32,000 nucleotides of DNA from Microcystis aeruginosa NIES-2549 (GCF_000981785.2 NZ_CP011304.1:2400001-2432000), one strand, 5' to 3'; positions 5,325-27,160 are shown, numbered from the stretch's first letter. Numbers and translations are program-made. Notes: generated by a model not told the origin, from the sequence alone.

Positions 5325-7316
5325 ATGTCCGAACAGATGATCTCCCCAGAGACGCAAACCCCAGAAGCGATTACTGTTGAAGTGCAGCCCGTCCATATTC
5401 CCGAAGAGCATCGGGAAGATACCGGCCCCATGGATGACAACGTAGCCGAGAGTTGGCGCTACAATCCCCAAGTTATTAACGACTATTACCGTCGGCGACC
5501 TCTAGAAGTTTTGGGGAGATTAATCGAAATTGCCCTGCCAGTTTTATCTTTTGTCATCGGTATCTGGTGGGATAAACTGCGGGGAAAATCGCCGAAAAAT
5601 GAAATTAGACGGGCCGTACAATTGCGGGAAATTTTGACCAAATTGGGACCGACCTATATTAAGATCGGTCAAGCTCTCTCTACCCGGCCTGATTTAGTAC
5701 CACCTTTATATTTAGAAGAATTAACCACTCTCCAAGATCAAATTCCCTCTTTTCCTAACGAAATTGCCTATCGTTTTATCGAAGAAGAATTAGGTTATTG
5801 TCCCGAAGAAATTTATGCAGAATTATCCCCCAATCCCATAGCGGCCGCTTCCCTAGGACAAGTTTATAAAGGTAAATTAAAAACCGGAGAGAGAGTCGCC
5901 GTTAAAGTACAGCGTCCCGATTTGATTCGCTGTATAACTTTAGATGTGTATATCATGCGTAGTTTGGCGAGTTGGGCGAAAGGTAATATTAAAAGACTTC
6001 GCTCCGATTTAGTGGCAATTACCGACGAATTAGCTGGTCGTATTTTTGAAGAAATTAATTATCTTCACGAGGGACAAAACGCCGAAAAATTCGCTCAACT
6101 TTATGGTCACATTGCCGAAATTTACATCCCCAAAATCTACTGGAAATATACCGGGCGACGGGTTTTAACCATGGAGTGGGTGGACGGCACAAAATTAACT
6201 AATATCAAAGAAATTCAGGCCCAGGGTATTGATGCCACCCACTTAGTTAATGTGGGGGTGCAGTGTTCTTTGCGTCAATTACTTGAACATGGATTTTTCC
6301 ATGCGGATCCCCATCCGGGTAATTTATTAGCGACCCCCGACGGTAAATTAGCTTATCTTGATTTCGGCATGATGAGCAATATTGAACCCTATCAACGCTA
6401 CGGTTTAATCGAAGCGGTGGTGCATTTAGTCAACCGGGATTTTGAGTCTTTGGCCAAGGATTACGTTAAGTTAGACTTCCTGTCACCAACTACCAATTTA
6501 GAGCCAATTGTTCCCGCTTTTTCGGAAGTTTTCGGTAATGCTTTGGGGGCGAGTGTGGCAGAATTAAACTTTAAAAGTATCACCGATAAAATGTCGGCGA
6601 TGATGTACGAGTTTCCCTTTCGAGTCCCTGCCTATTATGCCCTGATTATTCGCTCCATGGTGACTTTAGAGGGAATAGCGATTGGCATCGATCCTAATTT
6701 TAAGGTACTGAGTAAAGCCTATCCTTATATTGCTAAACGTCTGCTCACCGATCCTTCCACGGAGTTGCGCGATTCCCTGCGAGATTTATTGTTTAAAGAC
6801 GGTACTTTTCGCTGGAATCGTTTAGAAAATCTCCTGCGAAATGCTAAAGATTCTAATGATTTTAACTTCGAGAAAGTCACCGATCAAGCGTTAGATTTTC
6901 TCCTTTCAGACAGGGGTATATTTATCCGAGAAAAATTAGTTAATGAGTTAGTCAATGCGCTCGATAACTTCGGTCGTCGCACTTGGTTTAATCTCACGGT
7001 TAATTTCCGGGAACAGGTGGGTTTAACTGTGCAGGAAACTCCCCCAGAATTGTTAGGTGATGCTAAGAGTTTTGAGCATCTTCGCAACATCTTTACTATT
7101 TTACAAGAAACAAAAGGATTCGATGCCATGGCTATGGTGCCAGTGATGACTAAACTAATCGTTAAACCGGAAACTCAACAGATGGGACAAAAAATTGCTG
7201 AAGGTTTGCTACAAAAATCCCTAGCGCGTTTAATTCGTTACTTAGTTCTCGAATTTGATAGACCAAATCATCAGCAAAATGGAGAATTATCGAAAGCTTT
7301 ACCCGCTGCCGATTAA
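5325..7316 (+). CDS. ABC1/AarF/UbiB-family atypical kinase
   Basis: AAASLGQVYKGKL, VAVKVQRP and FFHADPHPGNL motifs; 663 aa. Confidence 0.9.
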   Translation: MSEQMISPETQTPEAITVEVQPVHIPEEHREDTGPMDDNVAESWRYNPQVINDYYRRRPLEVLGRLIEIALPVLSFVIGIWWDKLRGKSPKNEIRRAVQLREILTKLGPTYIKIGQALSTRPDLVPPLYLEELTTLQDQIPSFPNEIAYRFIEEELGYCPEEIYAELSPNPIAAASLGQVYKGKLKTGERVAVKVQRPDLIRCITLDVYIMRSLASWAKGNIKRLRSDLVAITDELAGRIFEEINYLHEGQNAEKFAQLYGHIAEIYIPKIYWKYTGRRVLTMEWVDGTKLTNIKEIQAQGIDATHLVNVGVQCSLRQLLEHGFFHADPHPGNLLATPDGKLAYLDFGMMSNIEPYQRYGLIEAVVHLVNRDFESLAKDYVKLDFLSPTTNLEPIVPAFSEVFGNALGASVAELNFKSITDKMSAMMYEFPFRVPAYYALIIRSMVTLEGIAIGIDPNFKVLSKAYPYIAKRLLTDPSTELRDSLRDLLFKDGTFRWNRLENLLRNAKDSNDFNFEKVTDQALDFLLSDRGIFIREKLVNELVNALDNFGRRTWFNLTVNFREQVGLTVQETPPELLGDAKSFEHLRNIFTILQETKGFDAMAMVPVMTKLIVKPETQQMGQKIAEGLLQKSLARLIRYLVLEFDRPNHQQNGELSKALPAAD

Positions 7317-7559: not shown

Positions 7560-8864
7560 TTAACGGGGTTTAAAGGTGACTTGTAAACCGTCCCGGGGGT
7601 GGGGAGTGGGGATAGAGGTGAGGGTGAGATCTTGATTAGGGAGTAATTGCCAATCGTATTTTTCTACTAAACGGACGGCTAAAATTTTCATCTCTAAACG
7701 AGCGAATTCTTTGCCGATACATTCGCGCAATCCCGCACCAAAGGGGATATATCCGTAGGGTTTTTCCTCGGCTAAAAAGCGATCGGGATCAAAGGTTTCA
7801 GGATGGGAATAAATGTTATTATCTTTATGGGTATTGCTGATTTGATACTGAACTATCCATCCTTTCGGTAAATGATAACCGTTAAATTGACAGTCTTCTA
7901 TTACCCGACGGAATCCTCCTCCCACGGGTGGAGTAAAACGTAAAACTTCTTTTAAAACGCGATCTAAATAGGTCATCTGTTTGAGGGTATCGACGCTTAA
8001 AGGAGTGGATAGATCAAAATTAGTTATTTCCTCCAAGACAAGCTGAAAAATATCGGGATGCAGTGCCATTTGTAGGCAGAAGGTGGCGATAGCGGAGGTT
8101 AAAGTTTCATGACCAGCAAAGAGTAATAATAGCACTTGATCCTTTAATTCCACTAAGGATAAACTTTGACCGTTTTCATCTTTAGCTTGTAAAAGGATAG
8201 CCAGAGCATCCTGGCCTAAGTCATCATTTTTTTGTCTTTCTAAAATGATAGTTTCTATGGCTTCTAGTAATTCTTCTCGACAGCGTAATGCTTTGCCGAA
8301 AGCTGTCCAGGGAAGGGGAATGGGAAGGGTAAATAGTCCCGCACACCAAGTATCAAAAGCTTCTCCTAATTTGGTAGCAGAACCCTGGTCAAGACCGACA
8401 AATAATTTACAGGCGATATCGAGGGTATAGTTTCTCAATTCAGGATACCATGACAGGGTTTTTGCGGTTTGCCAACGCTCTAAATAGCGAGCGGTAATTG
8501 TTTCTACCGTAGGGATATAACTTGCTAGGGACCGGGGTTGAAAAGCTTGATAGATTAAGCGACGACGGGAAGCATGGACATCTCCCGTATGCACCGCTAA
8601 AGATGCGCTGCCGAGGAGAGTTTTGGTACTTTTGGGCCAAGTTGCCGCAAAGTATTTATTCTCATTGCTGAGGAGAAACCGGTTAGCTTCGGCACCGGAT
8701 AAAATTATCGTGGGACTGCCAAAAATATGAGTACGGAAAAGTTGACCATATTTATTATGACGTTTGTTGGCAAAATCCCCATCGGTCAAAAAAGCGATTG
8801 TTTCTCCTAATAGGGGTAATCCGAAACTGCCGGGGGGTAGGGGTAAATCTTTGCTTATAGTCAT
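7560..8864 (-). CDS. cytochrome P450 (CYP120-like)
   Basis: Heme-binding loop FGAGLRECIGKEFA (FxxGxRxCxG) and I-helix FAGHETLTS. The likely start is MTISKDLPLPPGSFGLPLLGE at 8864; the track start at 8891 adds 9 aa. Confidence 0.9.
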   Translation of the reverse strand: MTISKDLPLPPGSFGLPLLGETIAFLTDGDFANKRHNKYGQLFRTHIFGSPTIILSGAEANRFLLSNENKYFAATWPKSTKTLLGSASLAVHTGDVHASRRRLIYQAFQPRSLASYIPTVETITARYLERWQTAKTLSWYPELRNYTLDIACKLFVGLDQGSATKLGEAFDTWCAGLFTLPIPLPWTAFGKALRCREELLEAIETIILERQKNDDLGQDALAILLQAKDENGQSLSLVELKDQVLLLLFAGHETLTSAIATFCLQMALHPDIFQLVLEEITNFDLSTPLSVDTLKQMTYLDRVLKEVLRFTPPVGGGFRRVIEDCQFNGYHLPKGWIVQYQISNTHKDNNIYSHPETFDPDRFLAEEKPYGYIPFGAGLRECIGKEFARLEMKILAVRLVEKYDWQLLPNQDLTLTSIPTPHPRDGLQVTFKPR

Positions 8865-9077: not shown

Positions 9078-10292
9078 TTAGCCTTTGCTAATAATAATTC
9101 GCGGCAAACGATGCTTAAACCCGCAGAGAATTTCCCAGGATATTGTACCTAAATCCCGCGCCCAATCGTCGGCGGTGATGCACTGCGGGCCATCTTTACC
9201 GATAAGGGTGACGATTTCCCCTGTTTTTACCTCTGGAATCTCGCTCACGTCAATCATTAACTGATCCATGGTTATCGCGCCGATTTGGGGTACTAAACGT
9301 CCTCTCAGGGATACTTTTAAACGATTGGAGAGATTGCGGGGAATTCCATCGGCGTAACCGATACCGACCACAGCAATACGGGTGTCTTTTGCCGCTATGT
9401 ACTGATGACCATAACTCACTCCCGAGCCGGCGGCAATGGTTTTGACTTGGGCAATGCGCGCTTTTACTTGCAGGACGGGTTGCAAAGGGACTTTATCGGT
9501 GAGATGATCGGCGGGATAAAGACCGTAGAGAGCTAATCCCACTCTAACTCGATCGTAGTGCAGAGATCGATCGCTTAGGGTAGCGGCAGAGTTGGCTAAA
9601 TGCAGACAGGGGGGATGATAACCTTTTGATCTTAACTCAGCGATCGCTTGTTGGAATCTTTGCCGTTGTAACTGCATGATCTCGGGGTTGGGATCGTCAG
9701 CCGTGGCAAAATGCGAGTATATACTGGCAATTTTCAGGTTAGGAGCCTCTAAAACCTGTTCGACGAATTTGGTGCCGTTTTGCCATTGTGTACCTAAGCG
9801 AGACATCCCCGTATCTAGTTTGATATGGACGGGCAGCCGCTGCTCTAAGCGTCTCATAACGGTGGCAAAAATTTGTACCTGTTCGATTTGCACCAGGGTG
9901 GGTTGCAATTGCCAATGGGCTAAGGCTGCCACTTCTTCCGGGGTATTGACTGCCCCTAAAATCATAATTGGGGCAACGATTCCCGCTTCGCGTAGTTCGA
10001 TACCTTCCCCGATAGTCGCGATGGCTAAAGATTGCGCCCCGGCTTCTAAAACGCTGTTAGCCACCTTAACTGCCCCGTGTCCGTAAGCATCAGCTTTAAT
10101 TACCGCCATTAATTCCGTTTTTGGGGCTAACAGGGCCTTGACTTTTCGCACGTTTTGTTGTAAGGCAGAGCGATCGATCTCTACCCAAGCACGATAGCGA
10201 ATTACTTCCGACAATTGATAATCATGACGGTTTTTGGGCGGATTGATAATTTTTGGTTCGATGCTAAACACCACTCGCTCACTCCTTTGCAC
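9078..10292 (-). CDS. alr: alanine racemase
   Basis: PLP-lysine motif AVIKADAYGHGA and a C-terminal ISWEILC...RLPR region. The start codon in the track is GTG, so the exact start is uncertain. Confidence 0.88.
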   Translation of the reverse strand: MQRSERVVFSIEPKIINPPKNRHDYQLSEVIRYRAWVEIDRSALQQNVRKVKALLAPKTELMAVIKADAYGHGAVKVANSVLEAGAQSLAIATIGEGIELREAGIVAPIMILGAVNTPEEVAALAHWQLQPTLVQIEQVQIFATVMRRLEQRLPVHIKLDTGMSRLGTQWQNGTKFVEQVLEAPNLKIASIYSHFATADDPNPEIMQLQRQRFQQAIAELRSKGYHPPCLHLANSAATLSDRSLHYDRVRVGLALYGLYPADHLTDKVPLQPVLQVKARIAQVKTIAAGSGVSYGHQYIAAKDTRIAVVGIGYADGIPRNLSNRLKVSLRGRLVPQIGAITMDQLMIDVSEIPEVKTGEIVTLIGKDGPQCITADDWARDLGTISWEILCGFKHRLPRIIISKG

Positions 10293-18098: not shown

Positions 18099-18424
18099 TA
18101 CAATGAGACTATACGCCTTATGTAAGTTAAAAGCTGGAATGGTGTAAACTCGTTCGATAGATTATCTCTCTAGTCGGAGTGTTGGACTCAAACACTTGAC
18201 CCCTAATTAGGTTGTTTTAGGTCACATCAAGTGTACTACTTTATTAGGTTTCTTACAGGAAATTTTAAAGGTTTGAGCCTTCGGTAAATCTTTCGAGGTA
18301 GCCTAGTTATCATATCTCAAAAATAGCTTGAGCGATTTTTTCAGAGGATTTTCCTAATGTAAAGTAATATCCTCTGAGTGTTTATAATGTTAAAAATTAA
18401 GTGATTTTTACTCATTTCAGTACA

Positions 18425-19957
18425 ATGGCAAAAAATCAAGCCGAATCTATGTCTGATCAGAATCATCAGCAGCCAGATATGGGTGCGAAGAAAACAACGC
18501 AGGCTAGGATAGAAGGTCAGGATAATAATCAAATAAAAACAGGAATTGATCCTAAAATTGATTCGGAAAAACCGTTTAAATATTCGGAGCCAACAGGAAG
18601 ATTAGGGGAGATAATCCTGCGCTTAATGCCGGTGGGTCTTTTGCTCGGAGGACTGAGTTATTGGGCGATAGTTGGCAAGATTCCGACTCCTGTTCAAGGA
18701 CGAGCGGTCATTTTGATTCCTCGTTCTATTGTTAATATCGAACCCCGTCAAGGTGGGCGGGTGTTAACCCTCCTGATTCAACCAGGAGATTCTGTCAAAA
18801 AAGGGCAATTACTGGCAACTTTAGAGTTTCCTGAATTAGAAACAGAATTAAAGGATAAAAAGGATAGGTTAGCAGATCTCAAGCAGCAGGATAAAAGAGT
18901 GGACTCTATTGAAGTGAGTCGTCGCCAATTGAATGCAGCCTCAGTAGATCGCCAGCAAAAGGCCAATCAGCTTCAGATTAAAGCACTTCAAGTTCAATTA
19001 TCCAGTAATCAAAAACAGCGAGAAGCCTATCTCTCCCATGCTCGATACCTTAAAAATTTCCAGAACTCAACGGATGAAAGACTAGCCGCCTACGATAAAC
19101 TTATCGAAGAGGGGGCTGTCGCCAAGCTAGATTTTCCCTCCTATTTGTTTCAGTTCAATAATCTAGAGGCTTCTAATAGTATCAATCGCGTCCAAATAGA
19201 ACTCGATCGCCTGAAGGGGGTTGATGAAAGCCTGCGAGCGCAGATGAACGCATTGACGGCACAGAATAATATACTAAACACAGAAAAACGGCAAATAGAC
19301 CTGCAAGATACAGCCAGTGATATTCTTCGTTACAATGCGATCGCTGACCAGCAACGAGAGATTAATACGTTAAGAACCACTATTCAAGCCAACAAAAATG
19401 TAGTGAGTCTGTACAACGGCCAGATTTTAGACTTATCTGTTAATCCGGGGGAAGTCCTGGCTCCGGGGGGGCGCATAGGTACGTTAGAAGTCTCCAATCT
19501 AAAGGCCAAGACCAACGTGGTGGCATTGTTTAAGAGTGGTGATGCCAAACGATTAGAACCGGGCAAGGAAGTAGAAGTCGTTCCCGATCTCTATGATCGC
19601 GAACGCTATGGGGGTATCGTCGCTAAGGTCGTTTCCGTCGATCAGCAGCCGGTAACTGTGGCAGAACTAGCAAATATAGTCGGAAGTCATGAACTCGCCA
19701 GCAAGCTGTTTCTGGGTAGAGATGAAGACGATCGCGATAAGCCTATACCCGTCAATGCAAGTGTTATCAAAGCCACTTTAGCGCTGAAGGTCGATCGCAA
19801 TACACCCAGTGGTTTTTACTGGACTCAAGCCAAGGGAGCGCCCCAAAGAATTACCAACGGGACTACCGCAGATGTCCATGCTGTGGTAGAAGAGCGTTCT
19901 TTAGTGAGTTATATAACCCCTGCTTTTCGCTGGATTACAGGGGTGTACGATCGTTAA
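18425..19957 (+). CDS. HlyD-family membrane fusion / periplasmic adaptor protein
   Basis: N-terminal TM (LRLMPVGLLLGGLSYWAIV), lipoyl-like IQPGDSVKKGQLLATL, a long coiled coil, and the C-terminal hallmark TNGTTADVHAVVEERSLVSYITP. The first ATG is at 18425. Confidence 0.85.
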   Translation: MAKNQAESMSDQNHQQPDMGAKKTTQARIEGQDNNQIKTGIDPKIDSEKPFKYSEPTGRLGEIILRLMPVGLLLGGLSYWAIVGKIPTPVQGRAVILIPRSIVNIEPRQGGRVLTLLIQPGDSVKKGQLLATLEFPELETELKDKKDRLADLKQQDKRVDSIEVSRRQLNAASVDRQQKANQLQIKALQVQLSSNQKQREAYLSHARYLKNFQNSTDERLAAYDKLIEEGAVAKLDFPSYLFQFNNLEASNSINRVQIELDRLKGVDESLRAQMNALTAQNNILNTEKRQIDLQDTASDILRYNAIADQQREINTLRTTIQANKNVVSLYNGQILDLSVNPGEVLAPGGRIGTLEVSNLKAKTNVVALFKSGDAKRLEPGKEVEVVPDLYDRERYGGIVAKVVSVDQQPVTVAELANIVGSHELASKLFLGRDEDDRDKPIPVNASVIKATLALKVDRNTPSGFYWTQAKGAPQRITNGTTADVHAVVEERSLVSYITPAFRWITGVYDR

Positions 19958-20232: not shown

Positions 20233-22464
20233 TTGGACAGTAAAAACGGGCTAATAATCAGACAGGGATTGAAGTTTTCCCTGGGTGCTGCTCTCTTAAC
20301 GAGTTTCTTTTGGCACCGAGGAAATGTATTAGACAACTTTGTCTATCCCGTCTTTGGGTATGTCTCTGTACTGATTGAGCCATCGATGGGAGGTGCGATT
20401 GCGGCAGGTTTGGGGCGTTTGGGGGGAAGTGCTTTGGGGGGAATCATTGCCGCTATCCTGGTGAACGCCTACGGAATCCAAGGCTCAAGTTTTTTTGTCA
20501 TTCCCTCTCTCACCTACATTTTAGCCGCCCTGATCTGTGAAACTTACCGATGGCAAGCCGCTTATTCCCAAGCCACACTACTGGGCGCTTTAATTGCCAT
20601 GAGAGTGGTAGGAACATCAGCACAACAAGATATCTGGCTCTATTTGCGGTCGCGCCTGATCGATAACTGGATCGGAATCGCTGTGGGAATTGCTGTGGCC
20701 TTACTATTTTGGCCCCAGAATACTCGATCCGATCTCAACCGGAACTTGATGGGAATCCTTCAAGATATACCGCGCTTGTTCCAAAAAATCCTCGATCGCC
20801 ACTTAAAAACTGAGGTCGAGGAGCGGGATTATTCTCTTTCTATTGAGCAGAACGAGCTTAACTTACTCAATCAGATTAAAAAATCAACACAAACTAGCCT
20901 TTCAACACTCACAAAAGCAACCCATGAATTCGGTAGTGAGATATTGGTGGCAGAAAATTGGAGTGAAATCTTGGCAATTCAGAACCAATTGACTCGACAA
21001 TTAGCTGATCTGATGGCTTTTAAGGGCGAAAAGCATGAACAAAATTTAGTGGGTCAGTTCAGGGCGGAATTTTACCAATTGGCGACTCATCTTACCGACA
21101 GCTTTGATAGCTTGAGGGATCTGAGTAACGGCAAAAAAATCTTAGCTACCCCTTACCTGACAGAATTAGAAGAAGATTTAGCGAATATTGGGGGTAAACT
21201 TGATCATCTCCGAACAAGTGGAGAGATTGACCGGTATGATGTTCAAGAATCACTACAGTTTTATCAATTTATTCAACTTGTATCTCGATTTATCCAACAA
21301 TGCGAGGGATTAGGAGGCAGGATAATCGATAAAACCAAAGTAACTGCAACTTTCAGGCGAAGACACCTGATTACCTTTCCCAAATGGGCCCCTATATCCC
21401 TAAAACGCCTGAGAGAAATTGTCAGTCTTGGCCTGGTTATTGGTTTGTTACTGGCTATTATTCGTCACATCGAGTTTCCCTATCCTTCTGCTTACGAAAA
21501 AGTGGCAGATATTGTGATCATAGGTGCAGTGGTCACTGTGATTCAACCGACAAGGGGGCGAGCGATCGCGATCGGTTGGGCGGCAACTGTTTCGTTGAGT
21601 TTGACGATTCTCTGTATTTACCTGTTGGTCAAGTCCTTTGGTTATAATCCTTTTAGTAGCAGTCTGGCTTATTTTTTCGCCTACTTCAGTTGTGCTTGGC
21701 TGGGGTTTACGCCAATCGCTCGCATCGGTGCGATTGTAGCAGCCGATGCCATCGGGAAGGATATTTTTCCTTTTTTCGAGCAAGGAATTTGGTCCGCACT
21801 GATTTCAGTTCCCGTAGGTGCGTTTCTGGGGGTGTTGCTGACCACTGTATTTATGACAAAATCGGCTACAAACCAACTGGAAACAGATTTTTCTGTGACT
21901 TTTAAGAAAATGGGACAGCTATATCAAAAACTGCTGTCAGGCTATTTTCAGGATACGATACCACCGTCAGATATCGCCCAACTGAAGCAGGCCATCACAG
22001 TGGCGATCGCTCAACATCCAGCCTCGGTTAAGATTGCCAGTCTCGAACAAATTTCCACAGTTTTAGCAACCAAACACCAAAATTTTTGGAATTTCTCCAT
22101 CGGCTACGAACAAAAACTCTCGGCTCAACTGGATGCTTTACAAGATGTGCTACAGCAACCGCTTCCTGAACCGATACGACAAAAGTTTTTACCTGAATTA
22201 CAAGCGATCGCACAACAGACCGCGATCGCTTTTGATGAAATGGCTGATGCGATCGCTGCCCAGGTAATTCTCAACCCACCAAAGTTAGGATTGCTCATCG
22301 AAGAAATTGAATCTCTTGAGAAGCAATTACTGAGCTTGCGGGTTGAGAGTCGAAGTTATCCCTTAAATGAGCTAATCGCCTTTAGCTCGGCTTTTATGAC
22401 GATGAAAGCCATTGCCAGCAACTTAAATCAAATGAGTCAAGACTTACCTGCCTACACCCAATAG
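20233..22464 (+). CDS. FUSC / aromatic acid exporter (ArAE) family membrane protein
   Basis: 743 aa with two hydrophobic multi-TM blocks, each followed by a long helical cytoplasmic region, as in AaeB/FusC. The start in the track is TTG. Confidence 0.8.
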   Translation: MDSKNGLIIRQGLKFSLGAALLTSFFWHRGNVLDNFVYPVFGYVSVLIEPSMGGAIAAGLGRLGGSALGGIIAAILVNAYGIQGSSFFVIPSLTYILAALICETYRWQAAYSQATLLGALIAMRVVGTSAQQDIWLYLRSRLIDNWIGIAVGIAVALLFWPQNTRSDLNRNLMGILQDIPRLFQKILDRHLKTEVEERDYSLSIEQNELNLLNQIKKSTQTSLSTLTKATHEFGSEILVAENWSEILAIQNQLTRQLADLMAFKGEKHEQNLVGQFRAEFYQLATHLTDSFDSLRDLSNGKKILATPYLTELEEDLANIGGKLDHLRTSGEIDRYDVQESLQFYQFIQLVSRFIQQCEGLGGRIIDKTKVTATFRRRHLITFPKWAPISLKRLREIVSLGLVIGLLLAIIRHIEFPYPSAYEKVADIVIIGAVVTVIQPTRGRAIAIGWAATVSLSLTILCIYLLVKSFGYNPFSSSLAYFFAYFSCAWLGFTPIARIGAIVAADAIGKDIFPFFEQGIWSALISVPVGAFLGVLLTTVFMTKSATNQLETDFSVTFKKMGQLYQKLLSGYFQDTIPPSDIAQLKQAITVAIAQHPASVKIASLEQISTVLATKHQNFWNFSIGYEQKLSAQLDALQDVLQQPLPEPIRQKFLPELQAIAQQTAIAFDEMADAIAAQVILNPPKLGLLIEEIESLEKQLLSLRVESRSYPLNELIAFSSAFMTMKAIASNLNQMSQDLPAYTQ

Positions 22465-22465
22465 G
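22203..22465 (+). repeat. direct repeat copy 1 (native 3' end of the FUSC gene)
   Basis: Matches 25929-26164, apart from a 27-bp in-frame indel and 3 substitutions, up to 1 nt past the TAG stop. Confidence 0.95.
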
Positions 22466-22543
22466 TAATAGGCAAATATTATCAGCCTGAAGGATTTCTG
22501 CTCTCAGGGCTGTATATTCAGTAGTGGATTGTTTCAGTAGAGT

Positions 22544-22614
22544 GTAGGGTGCGTTAGGCGGCTATCAATTTAGTCAAAAAACCAAAATTAATAATTCGCC
22601 GTAACGCACCCTAC
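22544..22614. mobile_element. 71-bp inverted-repeat element (GTAGGGTGCGTTA...TAACGCACCCTAC)
   Basis: Perfect 13-bp terminal inverted repeats at 22544-22556 and 22602-22614. Confidence 0.7.
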
Positions 22615-22698
22615 AAGATCAGCGATCGCACTTCCTCTACTAACGTTAAAGGCAAGATTGAGAAACATCTCTCCCTTGCCTTACGAACTTAGATTGGG

Positions 22699-22944
22699 TT
22701 ACAAGAACCCTAGAGATTTAGCGATTGCAATGAGTGCAGCGATAGCCTGTAAGAAGGGTAAAAAACGCCTAATAACTAATCTAAATCTTCGATAATAAGA
22801 TCGAGAAGTTTTATCTAGACGCTTGATACTCACCTTTAGCCTTTGGCAAAAAGACTGAAGTGACTGGTTTGATTTGCGCTGCCCGTTGCCGTTGAGCTTA
22901 CTTCCCTTTAACACTGTCTTCCTCCGGATCGAGTGAACCGGCAT
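22699..22944 (-). CDS. hypothetical very basic 81-aa ORF with hydrophobic C-terminus (doubtful)
   Basis: Supported only by an open frame. No recognisable motif or SD was checked. Confidence 0.15.
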   Translation of the reverse strand: MPVHSIRRKTVLKGSKLNGNGQRKSNQSLQSFCQRLKVSIKRLDKTSRSYYRRFRLVIRRFLPFLQAIAALIAIAKSLGFL

Positions 22945-23139
22945 TGCTCTCCCTTTGCAGGAAAGATAACAGTGGAGATCAGGGACTAAGGATTAACCCG
23001 ATTGCCCACACAGCGGACTATCTTTCGATAGTCGTGTTAGTCTGCCGTCTTAGTCCCATCAACTCGGAAAGGTGTGGTGTACCCCTTGTAGACAAAGGAT
23101 AGTTTCTTAATTATAGCGGATCGAATCAAGCCCGCAATT

Positions 23140-23447
23140 ACAGTTTGCCAGTACCTCCGTTCCTGAATCTAACTCAATATCTCGTGTTCTTGAGCATAGC
23201 GCCAGACTACGCGATCGCTACTTTCCATCGACAATCTAACCTCTCTAAAGGTGACAAATTGGACAGACTGAAACTCAAGTTAACCGCGTTTTGCCAATAT
23301 ACCAAGAAAAATCAGCTTCAATCAATGTGCATGGTGCGTTCCCCAAAATCTATTGGTGGAACAGTAGGACTTGCATTAGGGAACGCACCCTACGGCTACA
23401 AGGGAAAGTGTAGCTTCACGGCGCAAATTCACAACTCCATGTATCAT
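23140..23447 (-). pseudogene. remnant of a retropepsin-like (clan AA) aspartic protease gene
   Basis: Its ATG overlaps the stop of 23444..23719 (ATGA). It reads MIHGVVNLRREATLSLVAVG, then is interrupted by a 59-bp inverted-repeat element. Downstream frames carry only fragments (LIEADFS.., ..CRWKVAIA*, ..IELDSGTEVLA). The family call rests on recollection of the N-terminal motif. Confidence 0.35.
23333..23391. mobile_element. 59-bp inverted-repeat element inserted in the protease remnant
   Basis: ggtgcgttccc (23333-23343) and gggaacgcacc (23381-23391) form perfect 11-bp inverted repeats. Confidence 0.6.
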
Positions 23448-23719
23448 GAATTCTTCTTTAAGCTCCGCGAACCAAAGTGATACACGGCAGGGTGTCCAAT
23501 CCGAATTCCAAAAGGCTGGGCATCAGGGTTACGCTCAAATAGCCGATTGGTTGCAGCTACGACCGTTTCATCAACCTCAAAATCTCCGGTTTCGATGTCG
23601 ATCGCGATAATTTTACCCTCATTACCCGCTTCGACTTGCTGCCGAATGCCAGACTCGTAGAGTTCTTTCCCCCGACGAGCCATCTCCTCTTTGCTGTAAC
23701 GCCTTTGCCGAACTGTCAT
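23444..23719 (-). CDS. conserved cyanobacterial small protein usually paired with the aspartic protease gene (91 aa)
   Basis: YSKEEMARRGKELYESGIRQQVEAGNEGKIIAIDIETGDFEVDE...NPDAQPFGIRIGHPAVYHFG. The pairing with a protease gene is from recollection. Confidence 0.6.
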   Translation of the reverse strand: MTVRQRRYSKEEMARRGKELYESGIRQQVEAGNEGKIIAIDIETGDFEVDETVVAATNRLFERNPDAQPFGIRIGHPAVYHFGSRSLKKNS

Positions 23720-23825
23720 AGCCTTGCCCCATTGACTGCCTTCTCCATGTTAACCTGAACGATCTCGCTCTTTTGAATTGATAGGGTGTGTTTGGCAATC
23801 ACTTAATCTTGGCGATCGATATGAT

Positions 23826-24036
23826 GTAGCCTGTGTTAGCGTTAGCGTAACCCACGGATTTTGAACATTAGACAAGGTGCGTTCACTTCATTAACACACT
23901 CTATAAGATCGGCGTGCTGCTACGCAGTGCCTTCGGCATCGCATTCTGTTATGAGTTGATTGATGTTGGGTTTCCTTGGGTCAATCCAACCTACGGGCGA
24001 GGCGATCTGCTACGCAGTGCCTTTGGCATCGTACTC
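23826..24036 (+). repeat. composite ~190-bp repeat (modules A+B), copy 1
   Basis: gtagcctgtgttagcgttagcgtaacccacggattttgaacattaga... followed by ggcgtgctgctacgcagtgccttcggcatcgc...gttgggtttccttgggtcaatccaacctacgggcgaggc. Confidence 0.85.
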
Positions 24037-24247
24037 ATAATAGTTTACGAAATTCTGCGACTGTCAAACCAGCATCTTGAACAATTCCACCCATTGTAAA
24101 TGCCTTAATTGGATTGTGCCTTGGAAGAGCAACTTGACGCACCCCATCACTCATGATGATATGTTTGCCTTGGCGAATGATCCGAAAGCCTACCTTCTCC
24201 AAGGCTCGTACTGCATCTAGGTGATTTACGCCAGGAATTCTAGGCAT
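24035..24247 (-). CDS. hicA: HicA-family toxin (mRNA interferase)
   Basis: AVRALEKVGFRIIRQGKHIIM...LPRHNPIKAFTMGGIVQDAGLTVAEFRKLL shows the HicA/YcfA pattern. Confidence 0.85.
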   Translation of the reverse strand: MPRIPGVNHLDAVRALEKVGFRIIRQGKHIIMSDGVRQVALPRHNPIKAFTMGGIVQDAGLTVAEFRKLL

Positions 24248-24249
24248 AG

Positions 24250-24450
24250 TTACACCTGCATTTCAATTTCACGAATTTCCCCATCTTGCAAGCGTTCTTC
24301 TAAGGCTGCAAGATACTCACGAATTGCATCTTGGATATTGGTTAATGCCTCTTCCTCAGTATCTCCCTCAGACCAACAACCGGGGAGCGCAGGAACGCCA
24401 ACAGTAATTCCTTCTTCAGAACGATAAAGGACAATTTTGTATTTCATCAT
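24250..24450 (-). CDS. hicB: HicB-family antitoxin (UPF0150 fold, no DNA-binding extension)
   Basis: YKIVLYRSEEGITVGVPALPGCWSEGDTEEEALTNIQDAIREYL. Its stop lies 2 nt before the hicA start. Confidence 0.8.
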   Translation of the reverse strand: MMKYKIVLYRSEEGITVGVPALPGCWSEGDTEEEALTNIQDAIREYLAALEERLQDGEIREIEMQV

Positions 24451-24640
24451 AAGTTCCTTCTAGATAGCACTCCATTTTAGCTTGATAGAATTATGGATGT
24501 GGGATCAAATTGTAGCAACAGCGGAACCTCACAGCAAACTTGATATGGTTGGGTTTCCTTGCGTCAACCGTTCGGCAAAAGCTCACGGCCGAAGTTCAAC
24601 CTACAGGCTACTCTAGGCTATTTATTCCCCTAGAAACGAA

Positions 24641-24870
24641 TCGCACCGTTACATTTCATTAACGCACCCTACAAGATCGGCGTGCTGCTACGCAGTGCCT
24701 TCGGCATCGCACTCTGTTATGAGTTGATTGATGTTGGGTTTCCTTGCGTCAACCCAACCTACGGGCGAGGCTGAAACAGTCCAGTAGGGTGTGTTAGCGT
24801 CAGCGTAACGCACGGATTTTGAACATTAGATAAGGTGCGTTACATTGCATTAACGCACCCTACAAGATCA
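24641..24870 (+). repeat. composite ~190-bp repeat, copy 2 (1.2 units: end of A, B, A)
   Basis: cattaacgcaccctacaagatc recurs at 24657 and 24848 (191-bp period). Module B at 24675-24772 is near-identical to 23907-24003. Confidence 0.85.
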
Positions 24871-24905
24871 GCGATCGCACTACAAGAGTAGCGATCGCAC
24901 TAAAA

Positions 24906-25370
24906 TTAGTAGCATGAGTCTGATCTTGCATCATATTTTAAGTTAGCTTGATTACAAACTCTTCTCCTTGCACTTCTATAGTTAGCTTCATCGCCAATTT
25001 CTCTACAGACATTCGCATATCCCGCATAGCACATTCGTTCTTTTTGTAGTCTTTCTCTTTTTGCATCATATTCTTGTTGCAATTGTTGTCTATCGCTATC
25101 ACTAACTCGTCGTGTAACTTTACACTCTGGATATTTTCTTTCAGCCTCTGCAATCGTTGATGCTAAACTATTTATCCAATTGTTATATTGAGAAAAATCA
25201 AGAGGCGAGGGTGCGTTTGCCTCAAAATATTGTGCAATTTGCCGATGGAGTTGCTCACACTGTCTTTCTGATAGCCCCTTATTTTGTGCTAAAACTTCAT
25301 TACTATAAAAACTTAAGTTCATTGCAGTTGCAACAAAAACTAAACAAGCTGTGAATTTTGACGTTTTCAT
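24906..25370 (-). CDS. secreted Cys-rich protein of unknown function (154 aa)
   Basis: Signal-peptide-like N-terminus MKTSKFTACLVFVATAMNLSFYSNEVLAQ, 6 Cys in the mature part, and visibly AT-rich coding sequence. Confidence 0.55.
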   Translation of the reverse strand: MKTSKFTACLVFVATAMNLSFYSNEVLAQNKGLSERQCEQLHRQIAQYFEANAPSPLDFSQYNNWINSLASTIAEAERKYPECKVTRRVSDSDRQQLQQEYDAKRERLQKERMCYAGYANVCREIGDEANYRSARRRVCNQANLKYDARSDSCY

Positions 25371-25425
25371 GTGATTGAATTAATTGAATTAAATTTCTTA
25401 AACTTCTTGAAGTCTAACCATATAT

Positions 25426-25526
25426 TATACGGAAATTTTCCGTATATCACGCCAAATACACATTTTTTAAAGAATCTTTCCGTATATTACGCTCAAATGG
25501 AGTGATCGCGAGAAGTTTTCCGTATA
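25426..25526. promoter_or_regulatory. three phased TTTCCGTATA sites (40-bp spacing), the first within a 21-bp palindrome
   Basis: tttccgtata occurs at 25437-25446, 25477-25486 and 25517-25526. The palindrome tatacggaaattttccgtata is at 25426-25446. All lie in the divergent intergenic region between 25370 and 25568. Confidence 0.55.
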
Positions 25527-25567
25527 ATATTACGATAAGCGTGTTATGCCGATTAGCGTACTCTTTT

Positions 25568-25925
25568 ATGAACCCTCCCCCACCCCGAAAACTCCTAGAC
25601 GTAGTGCGAGAGACGATCCGCCCTACCGCATTACTCCTACCGCACCGAACAAACATATCTGGACTGGATTAAGCGTTATCTGCTCTTCCATCAGAAAAAA
25701 CATCCCCGTGAAATGGGGGGTGAAGAAATTAGAGCCTTTTTGAGCCATCTTGCCGTTGATAAAAACGTTGCCACCGCCACCCAAAACCAAGCCCTCAACG
25801 CCATCCTTTTCCTTTATCGAGAAGTTCTGAAAATTGAACTGGAAAATATCGGTGCATATTTACGGGCAAAACGCTCCAAACGTCTGCCCACCGTCCTCAC
25901 CAAAAAAGTAAAAATGGCTGATGAT
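25568..25925 (+). pseudogene. tyrosine recombinase stub (integron-integrase/XerD-like), N-terminal SAM-like domain only; frameshifted and truncated
   Basis: [18 protein letters not shown], then a +1 frameshift in the cgccc run near 25619-25623, then (L)[68 protein letters not shown]...RLPTVLTKK. The catalytic domain is absent. Confidence 0.75.
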
Positions 25926-25928
25926 TTT

Positions 25929-26164
25929 AGCGATCGCACAACAGACTGCGATCGCTGCCCAGGTAATTCTCAACCCACCAAAGTTAGGATTGCTCATCCA
26001 AGAAATTAAATCTCTTGAGAAGCAATTACTGAGTTTGCGGGTTGAGAGTCGAAGTTATCCCTTAAATGAGCTAATCGCCTTTAGCTCGGCTTTTATGACG
26101 ATGAAAGCCATTGCCAGCAACTTAAATCAAATGAGTCAAGACTTACCTGCCTACACCCAATAGG
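25929..26164 (+). pseudogene. orphan duplicate of the FUSC gene 3' end (direct repeat copy 2)
   Basis: Encodes ...[74 protein letters not shown], matching the last ~87 aa of 20233..22464 minus 9 aa. Confidence 0.9.
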
Positions 26165-26166
26165 GG

Positions 26167-27021
26167 CTAAATCCCTTCTTTTCTGGCTAAAAGGACGGGA
26201 CAATTGACATTAACCCGCACATAATCCGAGAGGGAAGTACCGAGAAGGCGATCGAGATCTGGTAAACTCTTAGCCACGGAAGGACGGCGATCCGGCGAAC
26301 CCAACAGTAAGAGATCCACATTATAATCATCGACGAGTTTGCAGAGTTGTTCTCCCGGTTTACCCCCCGTCACCACGCAGCGATAGGGTATATTCATCCG
26401 TTTCGCTTTTGCCACTGCCGGCCCTATAATCGGGTTTTCTTCCATTTCTTTGGGGGAAGTGGGGGCAAATTCCGGTTTTAAGTCGGGGTTGACGCGGGCC
26501 AGAATTAACTCTGCTGAAGGATAATCCCGCAGGAGATAAATAGCCAGATCGAGAGCTAAATCAGCCGAACTAGACTTATCGAGAGCTACCATCACCTTTT
26601 TGATTTTTTTGACGTAAATATCGTCTTTTACCAATAACATCGGGTGATTAGTCAGTTGAAAGACGTATTGACTGACGGAATTTTCTAGAATTGCCTCCAG
26701 TCGCTTCAGTCCTCGGGAACCCATCAGGATCAAATCGGCCCCGATTTCGTCGGCAACTTGACAGACGGTATCTTTGGGATCTCCTTGCCGCAGAATCGTG
26801 GAGACTTTGCTGGGTTCAATTTTGACTTCTTGCAGGATTTTAGTCAGCATTTGGGTCCCTTCTTCCCATTTACTGGCCAGAGCTTCGGTGGTAATCTGAG
26901 GGGGAACAACCCGGAGAATGGTAATCGACGCTTTCCGGATAGCGGGGAGATCCATCAATGCTTGTAGCATTTCTTGGGTTTGACCTGTGCCGGAATCAGC
27001 GTATAGTATTTTCTCTAGCAT
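26167..27021 (-). CDS. universal stress protein, tandem UspA domains
   Basis: 284 aa with two Usp-like halves, each with G-x2-G-x9-G(S)-like motifs (LILMGSRGLKRLEAILENSVSQYV and LLLLGSPDRRPSV...LGTSLSDYV). Confidence 0.85.
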   Translation of the reverse strand: MLEKILYADSGTGQTQEMLQALMDLPAIRKASITILRVVPPQITTEALASKWEEGTQMLTKILQEVKIEPSKVSTILRQGDPKDTVCQVADEIGADLILMGSRGLKRLEAILENSVSQYVFQLTNHPMLLVKDDIYVKKIKKVMVALDKSSSADLALDLAIYLLRDYPSAELILARVNPDLKPEFAPTSPKEMEENPIIGPAVAKAKRMNIPYRCVVTGGKPGEQLCKLVDDYNVDLLLLGSPDRRPSVAKSLPDLDRLLGTSLSDYVRVNVNCPVLLARKEGI

Positions 27022-27130
27022 AAGATTAAACTCGGTCTATGATCTTAATAGTTTTCGCCAATTTTCAGCATACTGCTAATGTTGTTCCCGAAATTTAACA
27101 ACTTATTAAGCGCTTTTTCTTCGGTTAACG

Positions 27131-27160
27131 CGATGCCGAAGGCACTGCGTAGCAGCTCGC
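27131..27160 (-). repeat. isolated fragment of repeat module B
   Basis: gcgatgccgaaggcactgcgtagcagc is the reverse complement of gctgctacgcagtgccttcggcatcgc from 23915/24683. Confidence 0.75.

Follow-up and report, generated by a model that had tools for sequence, protein, structure and literature searches.

A sedentary chromosomal integron with a decayed intI, and the probable scar of its insertion, between a FUSC-like gene and usp in Microcystis aeruginosa NIES-2549

What kind of DNA separates a gene from a second copy of its own 3' end, and how did it come to lie there? The question is raised by a 32,000-nucleotide stretch of Microcystis aeruginosa NIES-2549 (GCF_000981785.2, NZ_CP011304.1:2400001-2432000; hereafter the window, to whose first letter all plain coordinates refer), in which a gene for a 743-aa FUSC/ALMT-like membrane protein (20233..22464, plus strand; Pfam FUSC/ALMT matches, FUSC itself slightly below its curated cutoff) is followed by accessory DNA, by a repeat of the gene's own end, and by usp, a convergent gene with tandem Usp domains (26167..27021, minus strand; Pfam Usp match). 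An earlier reading of the window, made from the sequence alone (the sequence-only reading), had proposed a decayed integrative element that targeted the 3' end of the FUSC gene, with the repeats as att-like sites. Its placement of accessory DNA with an integrase between the FUSC-like gene and usp holds; the nature that it gave to this DNA does not, since what lies there is an array of cassettes in which the one nearest attI varies between strains at an exact G|TT point. Segment 22466-25928 is most probably a sedentary chromosomal integron, consisting of a dead integron integrase gene (intI), an attI site and a short, decayed array on the minus strand, and the duplicated gene end is then the scar of its insertion, not an att site.

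Integrase gene and attI site

The integrase gene of the window is a pseudogene (25568..25907, plus strand), recognized by tblastn with an intact Microcystis IntI (P0128) and by matches to TIGR02249 and PF13495. Its first 18 codons take up 25568-25621; after a +1 frameshift at 25622, codons 19-113 extend over 25623-25907, where the gene breaks off, its catalytic domain deleted and its stub pointing into the second copy of the FUSC end. At the position of this stub, M. aeruginosa NIES-4325 (L005) holds a 292-aa open reading frame (ORF) with a complete catalytic domain, which scores 444.7 bits against TIGR02249 (L005:20898-21776; cutoff 265 bits); its full-length relatives are annotated as integron integrases, the name that databases already give to the Microcystis protein. 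The IntI of NIES-843 (L036), encoded at the same locus, is intact with 325 aa, and its residues 1-299 align with VchIntIA (PDB 2A3V) at E = 9e-89 across the IntI-specific insertion region. These comparisons point to a bona fide IntI at the FUSC/usp locus, whose recombination sites would be attI and attC, not the FUSC repeats. Intact versions of the integrase, for which the sequence-only reading had suggested searching relatives, are thus present in both strains, intact or nearly so. In NIES-843 (AP009552) a Tn5-like insertion sequence (IS) at L036 10882-12470 has entered intI at its extreme 3' end, where it takes the place of the final few codons of a gene that is intact in all other respects, and further IS copies interrupt the array of that strain.

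Close relatives of this IntI occur at other loci that carry no FUSC fragments, next to ribF in a Snowella metagenome-assembled genome (L035) and next to cobS in a contig of M. aeruginosa W13-11 (L038); a database look-up of the Picosynechococcus IntI (P0007) returned no record. The W13-11 contig (4500-11000) presents a second Microcystis integron at a different locus, in which an intact intI is followed by cobS, with four canonical attC sites and an attI similar to that of the FUSC/usp locus. Its array contains three direct copies of the attI repeat region (5748-5845, 7666-7872 and 9871-10077), one of which follows an attC ending G|TTATAC and resembles the delta-attI-type cassettes of mobile integrons.

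The cassette entry point was located by comparing 16 loci upstream of intI. Conservation stops at the same base in all of them, ...ataatatata|GTTRRRY, and 15 different sequences lie beyond. Because conservation ends exactly at G|TTRRRY with 15 different first cassettes after it, the recombination core GTTAGAC (25411..25417, read 25417-25411 on the minus strand) is the attI crossover point, and it has received different cassettes in different strains. Between this core and the intI start lie three direct repeats, TTTCCGTATAT, spaced by 40 bp (25431..25529; repeat family D10), which are candidate accessory IntI-binding sites of attI. They sit in the 150 bp upstream of intI, a stretch conserved also upstream of the intact intI of a metagenome contig (L034) and of the Snowella genome. 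A scan for a Pc promoter gave a weak sigma-70-like match at 25552-25524 (minus strand), in a region where the number of matches is not above that in shuffled sequence; promoter and terminator scans of the island likewise did not rise above background.

A short array and its repeated elements

Read from attI toward FUSC, the array occupies 22466..25416 on the minus strand, as delimited by ORF strand, strain variation and covariance-model search. All island ORFs lie on this strand and read away from intI, as in a classical integron. The first cassette begins TTAGAC from 25416 downwards and contains a 154-aa ORF with a signal-peptide-like N terminus (24906..25370, minus strand; ORF call and attI comparison). 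It is followed by a hicBA toxin-antitoxin cassette (hicB, 24250-24450; hicA, 24035-24247; both minus strand, with Pfam HicB and HicA matches), which starts at about G|TTGCTAC, with the G at 24519 (minus strand), a left boundary shared with L028 and L030 at TG|TTGCTAC. The p91 cassette carries a 91-aa ORF (23444..23719, minus strand), and about 0.7 kb of the array is without a convincing ORF. The sequence-only reading had recognized most of these contents, namely hicBA, the 154-aa signal-peptide-like ORF, palindromic elements and the integrase stub directed into the second FUSC end. Its degraded protease pair is refined by strain comparison: p91 does partner a retropepsin-like protease gene in other strains (a 91-aa plus 122-aa pair in L005, p91 plus p59 elsewhere), but in the window that protease gene is degraded or absent.

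The window integron is a degenerate remnant of three or four cassettes (the 154-aa ORF, hicBA, p91 and the ORF-poor 0.7 kb), degenerate because its attC sites give no significant match and its intI is dead. The attI-proximal cassettes differ between strains, and the distal ones (hicBA, and p91 with or without the protease remnant) are shared. In BLCC-F210 (L008), a canonical attC at array position ~1217 ends G|TTAGAC and is followed by ttcaagaagtttaag...; the first cassette of the window starts TTAGACttcaagaag..., with the same 5' boundary and leader, and the two diverge in the downstream ORF. Since one copy is linked to an attC and the other to attI, a related cassette thus keeps one and the same boundary in different places of the arrays.

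A family of ~87-nt hairpins is present in related arrays, with the form RYYTAAC-AA..-stem-G-CAGCGGAC ... CCGCTG-stem-CGTTAGRC. Ten such sites, supplied by a strict hairpin scan, share by alignment an R''/L''/L'/R' structure in which a G of the 5' arm is left unpaired, with compensatory changes in 12 of 20 pairs (alignment A2). A simpler scan for RYYYAAC...GTTRRRY hairpins was dropped as non-specific, having returned 101 forward and 121 reverse matches. A covariance model trained on the ten sites, all from the same genus, detected 19 distinct significant attC sites in Microcystis loci, some of them outside the training set, and 7 in later loci, 26 in total. All 26 lie inside arrays and in array orientation, with none in flanks or outgroup loci; many of the loci are orthologous, so neither these counts nor those of the palindromes below are numbers of independent events.

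A second class of hairpin is restricted, within the window, to the island, where it lies between cassettes and corresponds to the IR mini-elements of the sequence-only reading. Its arms are GTAGGGTGCGTTA / TAACGCACCCTAC, and copies occur at 23330-23393, 23783-23905, 24640-24672 and 24784-24863; element E5 (GTAGGGTGCGTTAC...CCTAACGCACCCTAC; 22542..22616, minus strand; hairpin fold z = -7.6) is the last element before the FUSC stop codon and also the best match to the attC model in the window array (7.7 bits, E = 5.8). Arrays totalling 117 kb contain the motif 54 times, in a single orientation throughout, and 266 kb of flanking Microcystis DNA contain none. It occurs in the W13-11 integron too, and one of the copies there stands in place of the core of a truncated attI copy. 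As canonical attC sites, the GTAGGGTGCGTTA...TAACGCACCCTAC palindromes were rejected, their GTT/AAC order being reversed and their best score only those 7.7 bits. A full-text literature search for the motif returned only unrelated papers.

Another short repeat, CTGCTACGCAGTGCCTTCGGCATCGC, is present at 23917-23942, 24007-24032 and 24685-24710 on the plus strand and at 27130-27155 on the minus strand, so that three copies fall in the array and the fourth beyond it, between usp and a hydrolase gene. It often stands beside a GGTTGGGTTGACGCAAGGAAACCCAAC hairpin and is probably a genome-wide repetitive extragenic palindromic (REP)-like element.

The duplicated FUSC end and the insertion event

The last 87 codons of FUSC, with the stop codon and one further nucleotide (22203-22465, plus strand; copy 1, within the intact gene), recur at 25929-26164 (plus strand; copy 2), as found by repeat search and alignment (repeat family D1). 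The copies differ by three substitutions, two of them non-synonymous (22300 G/C, E to Q; 22309 G/A, E to K; 22335 C/T, synonymous), and by a HIP1-flanked gap of 27 nt, for which segment 22221-22247 between two GCGATCGCT repeats is present in copy 1 only. Both end at ...cctacacccaatagg (...cccaatagg), diverge beyond it and are spaced by 3463 bp; to this point alignment confirms what the sequence-only reading had described. Outgroup FUSC proteins retain the nine codons of the 27-bp segment, as judged from alignment lengths, and copy 2 is therefore the deleted one.

The same layout (FUSC, a variable segment of 2-10+ kb, integrase stub, copy 2, convergent usp) is present in nearly all Microcystis loci long enough to show the region. 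The order of usp, copy 2, intI stub and attI is constant in all informative loci of the genus, and the array content differs. Since the duplication is found in many independent assemblies, including four complete chromosomes (L008, CP169647; L011, CP191408; L030, AP019314; L036, AP009552), it is no assembly artefact; it is real, old and genus-wide. The sequence-only reading had itself allowed that a collapsed repeat might explain the duplication, and a misjoined repeat or chance similarity would be explanations of the same kind. One scaffold gives them a foothold, L024, in which an apparent third partial FUSC 3' end (19241-19340) borders a run of N; we attribute this to scaffolding and see no true triplication. 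Against the concordance of the four chromosomes and a 218-nt stretch of the copies at 98.6% identity, far above chance, such an artefact has next to no probability.

Upstream of copy 2, three loci (L005, L036 from NIES-843, and L037) retain a longer form of the region, in which intI precedes what is left of a vapB-like antitoxin gene, a PIN toxin gene that is truncated, and FUSC fragments that match window 21516-21565 and 22020-22074, followed by a copy 2 that already bears the same 27-bp deletion. Because the long form retains these upstream fragments, copy 2 formerly spanned no less than the final 0.95 kb of FUSC and has been eroded by deletions, so that 25929..26164 is what remains of it; its present left edge, which differs between the long and short forms, is a deletion scar. 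Relative to the long form, the short form of the window carries two further deletions, to which the catalytic domain of intI, the greater part of vapB'C' and the FUSC fragments upstream were lost and which left a remnant of ~20 nt, aaaaatggctgatgatttt, from the start of the vapB-like gene (25908..25928, plus strand; the sequence found upstream of the vapB'/PIN' remnants in L005 and L036). A 12-mer, aaatggctgatg, shared by copy 1 (22238-22249) and the segment just before copy 2 (25912-25923), had been taken as the possible mark of a microhomology-mediated rearrangement that removed the catalytic domain. The loss of that domain by deletion stands, but the 12-mer on the copy 2 side lies within the vapB-like remnant, and its exact form in copy 1 is confined to this strain, the other 19 copy 1 sequences reading GAAATGGCTGAGG, GAAATTGCTGAGG and similar; for these reasons the match is a chance one.

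Among 35 sequences of copies 1 and 2, no difference is fixed between the two, and at least five sites (22266, 22300, 22326, 22335 and 22428) are polymorphic in both. The shared polymorphisms indicate that gene conversion keeps the copies similar. Since 22300 segregates in both copies, the E-to-Q exchange is an ordinary polymorphism of the functional FUSC gene. The three substitutions listed by the sequence-only reading are therefore present but of unequal meaning: 22300 and 22335 vary in both copies, and the E-to-K variant at 22309 is found in copy 2 only, in three strains.

These observations bear on the proposal that an island with its own tyrosine integrase entered the FUSC 3' end site-specifically, brought a replacement end, left attL and attR as the repeats and then decayed. 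Direct repeats of a gene's 3' end do bracket accessory DNA, an integrase gene adjoins one of them, intact integrases exist at the locus, and an uninterrupted site is known (see below). The integrase, however, is an IntI with an adjacent attI that has demonstrably been used; close relatives of this integrase, next to ribF and cobS, have no FUSC fragments beside them; between the repeats lies an array of cassettes instead of the genes of an island; and the duplication was at least 0.95 kb long, with a left edge made of a truncated PIN gene junction and later deletions and with no conserved core, which also removes the case for the repeats as att-like sites. Rfam and tRNA scans of the window gave no matches, and hence no tRNA or tmRNA target is involved. 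Related genomes have the duplicated end and differ in what separates its copies, which is essentially the outcome that the sequence-only reading had named as speaking against itself. On this comparison the attL/attR proposal is strongly disfavoured, and action of IntI on the FUSC repeats is unsupported.

An uninterrupted site, which the sequence-only reading had recommended seeking in relatives, was found once. We scanned a metagenome collection for a FUSC end that contains the 27-bp segment and is fused to the usp flank, and a single contig (L039) was returned, in which an intact HlyD-FUSC pair is followed directly by usp and its downstream genes. Its junction, ...caataGGggctaaatcc, is identical to the copy 2/usp junction. 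In trees, the flanking genes of L039 fall inside Microcystis diversity, and its usp differs by 1.6% from that of NIES-843. Whichever origin L039 has, FUSC-usp adjacency is the uninterrupted arrangement, and usp as the original neighbour, proposed earlier, gains support from it.

How the integron arrived is a matter that we infer from the final structure. A single event would have placed it between FUSC and usp, leaving FUSC intact and directly duplicating the 3' part of that gene. This could have been a Campbell-type homologous single crossover between the chromosome and a circular molecule that carried a FUSC 3' fragment; alternatively, it could have been a homology-anchored illegitimate insertion of DNA with such a fragment, with the PIN'/FUSC-21516 junction as the non-homologous joint. 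Either would yield the unbroken gene, then the inserted DNA and, beside the original neighbour, a displaced second 3' end. The redundant copy near usp was then cut by deletions to ~236 bp, the same deletions taking the intI catalytic domain and the vapBC pair, and the rest is kept like copy 1 by gene conversion. Recombination between copies 1 and 2 can delete the integron precisely. A different history, in which the integron first lay between FUSC and usp with no duplication, a tandem duplication then ran from inside FUSC to inside vapC, and the second array was later deleted, is unlikely. The vapC'/FUSC-21516 junction does resemble a novel joint, and the locus is prone to rearrangement, with inversions in L031 and L037; but this history requires an extra deletion that ends exactly 2 nt past the FUSC stop so that copy 2 abuts usp, the second array left no trace, and the identity of the copy 2/usp junction with the empty-site junction is simpler if FUSC-usp adjacency was original.

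In a working copy of the integron, a circular cassette folds its attC into a hairpin, which IntI recombines with attI at G|TT. Each newcomer therefore enters beside intI and displaces older cassettes toward FUSC, which matches the pattern among strains. Nearly all strains share the same intI truncation yet differ in their first cassettes, and so either IntI is supplied in trans or the truncated allele has spread by homologous recombination. W13-11 has a second integron next to cobS, with an intact intI, a similar attI and canonical attC sites. A fuller scenario is speculative and, as a whole, rather improbable: the duplication would be the footprint of an entire platform that colonized a new site by homology-guided single-crossover or illegitimate insertion, the truncated platform would gain cassettes through IntI in trans (for example from the cobS-adjacent integron, as in W13-11), and the GTAGGGTGCGTTA palindromes would be non-canonical attC sites or elements that target attC or attI.

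Several points weigh against the integron reading, or against parts of it. With filters off, the covariance model found no canonical attC with E < 0.5 in the window; since intI is dead as well, integron activity cannot be claimed for the window copy. Several boundaries between shared and unshared array segments lie off G|TT, and therefore processes not catalyzed by IntI also shape the arrays. The array-restricted palindromes may belong to a class of non-canonical attC sites, derive from attC, or be small elements with attC or attI as their target. The empty site of L039 may represent either the ancestral state or a precise secondary loss through recombination of copy 1 with copy 2, and the latter possibility follows from the nesting of its flanking genes within Microcystis diversity. 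Outgroups do not settle the direction of change between empty and occupied sites, because they lack usp next to FUSC: in 11 non-Microcystis cyanobacterial loci, none has usp within 10 kb of FUSC, and the FUSC end is single. No donor arrangement that would account for the duplication was found.

Some further features of the locus and its relatives were noted. An HlyD-type adaptor gene (18401-19957) precedes the FUSC-like gene to form an AaeAB-like efflux pair, which Microcystis and outgroup cyanobacteria alike have kept; FUSC protein identity is 96-99% in 11 Microcystis loci and 46-63% in other cyanobacteria. In Microcystis sp. 0824 (L037, 1-16000), FUSC and usp enclose the whole integron in inverted orientation and with its intI intact, and there are three FUSC 3' pieces with both short-form and long-form junctions; in L031 (10800-18000), the HlyD-FUSC pair is inverted relative to usp. 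Two loci, L004 (4955-14951) and L006 (4895-5574), diverge from all others 5 nt past the FUSC stop (TAGGTAA|GCTGCTA); L004 has no window-like array, no attC matches and no usp within 10 kb, and in these loci either the array end was replaced or a large insertion occurred. A 585-bp contig labelled Nocardioides allogilvus KCTC 49020 (L022) matches the FUSC gene of Microcystis at 97% protein identity, most likely because cyanobacterial DNA contaminated an actinobacterial assembly. Elsewhere in the window, a 404-aa ORF (9078-10292, minus strand) equals in length an IS605 OrfB/TnpB-like gene in the corresponding flank of L024.

Known systems and the meaning of the locus

The array of the Vibrio cholerae superintegron holds well over a hundred cassettes. 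The Microcystis platform shares with that system a full-length homologous integrase that includes the IntI-specific region (VchIntIA, 2A3V), attC hairpins with R and L boxes and an unpaired base, and toxin-antitoxin cassettes; it differs in that the window array is tiny (three to four cassettes), the integrase is dead and the attC sites belong to another family, with the CAGCGGAC...CCGCTG stem. A cassette cluster without a working integrase, beside a recognizable intI pseudogene, also recalls the attC clusters that have no integrase (CALINs), a minority of which have intI pseudogenes nearby (Cury et al. 2016, PMC4889954). Unlike a CALIN, the window retains an intact attI and strain-specific first cassettes, and with attC sites that are undetectable it falls short of the two or more that define the class.

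The closest analogue is the ilvD integron of Xanthomonas, which likewise combines a fixed site, a decayed intI and variable arrays. According to the overview in bioRxiv 10.1101/2025.06.18.660453, which summarizes Gillings et al. (2005), that integron is fixed downstream of ilvD throughout the genus, and frameshifts or large deletions have often inactivated its intI; the same overview describes the cassette arrays as lineage-specific and a few lineages as retaining a full-length intI. The Microcystis locus differs in its cyanobacterial host, in the loss of canonical attC sites from the window array and in its array-restricted GTAGGGTGCGTTA palindromes. It is also bracketed by the duplicated 3' end of a neighbouring gene, for which we noted no Xanthomonas counterpart in that overview.

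With islands and prophages that integrate at 3' ends of tRNA, tmRNA or protein-coding genes, the locus has in common direct repeats of the gene end, an intact gene and an empty site in a relative. In contrast to those elements, the Microcystis repeats are not integrase substrates, were originally ~1 kb long as against a short core, and stand beside an integron-class integrase with its own attI. Campbell-type insertion-duplications by single crossover are produced with suicide plasmids in cyanobacterial genetics. The locus resembles their product in its intact gene, inserted DNA, truncated 3' copy and original downstream neighbour, and in being reversible through the repeats, but the Microcystis event was natural, no donor molecule was found for it, and its mechanism is read from the structure that it left.

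Integrons have already been reported in Cyanobacteria, and our literature search found no published description of this Microcystis locus. It is a sedentary chromosomal integron with a decayed intI, of a known type, and what is unusual and informative about it is the insertion scar. The arrival of sedentary chromosomal integrons at their loci is poorly documented; here a duplication of ~1 kb as insertion scar, long and short stages of decay and an empty site are available within one genus. The locus also teaches caution, in that a duplicated gene end and an integrase stub are insufficient for calling an integrative island. With 15 different first cassettes and a near-universal truncation, it offers a natural test of whether an attI beside a dead intI keeps receiving cassettes. 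For Microcystis, a bloom-forming genus whose genome is very plastic, the locus is one hotspot of fixed position for strain-specific genes.

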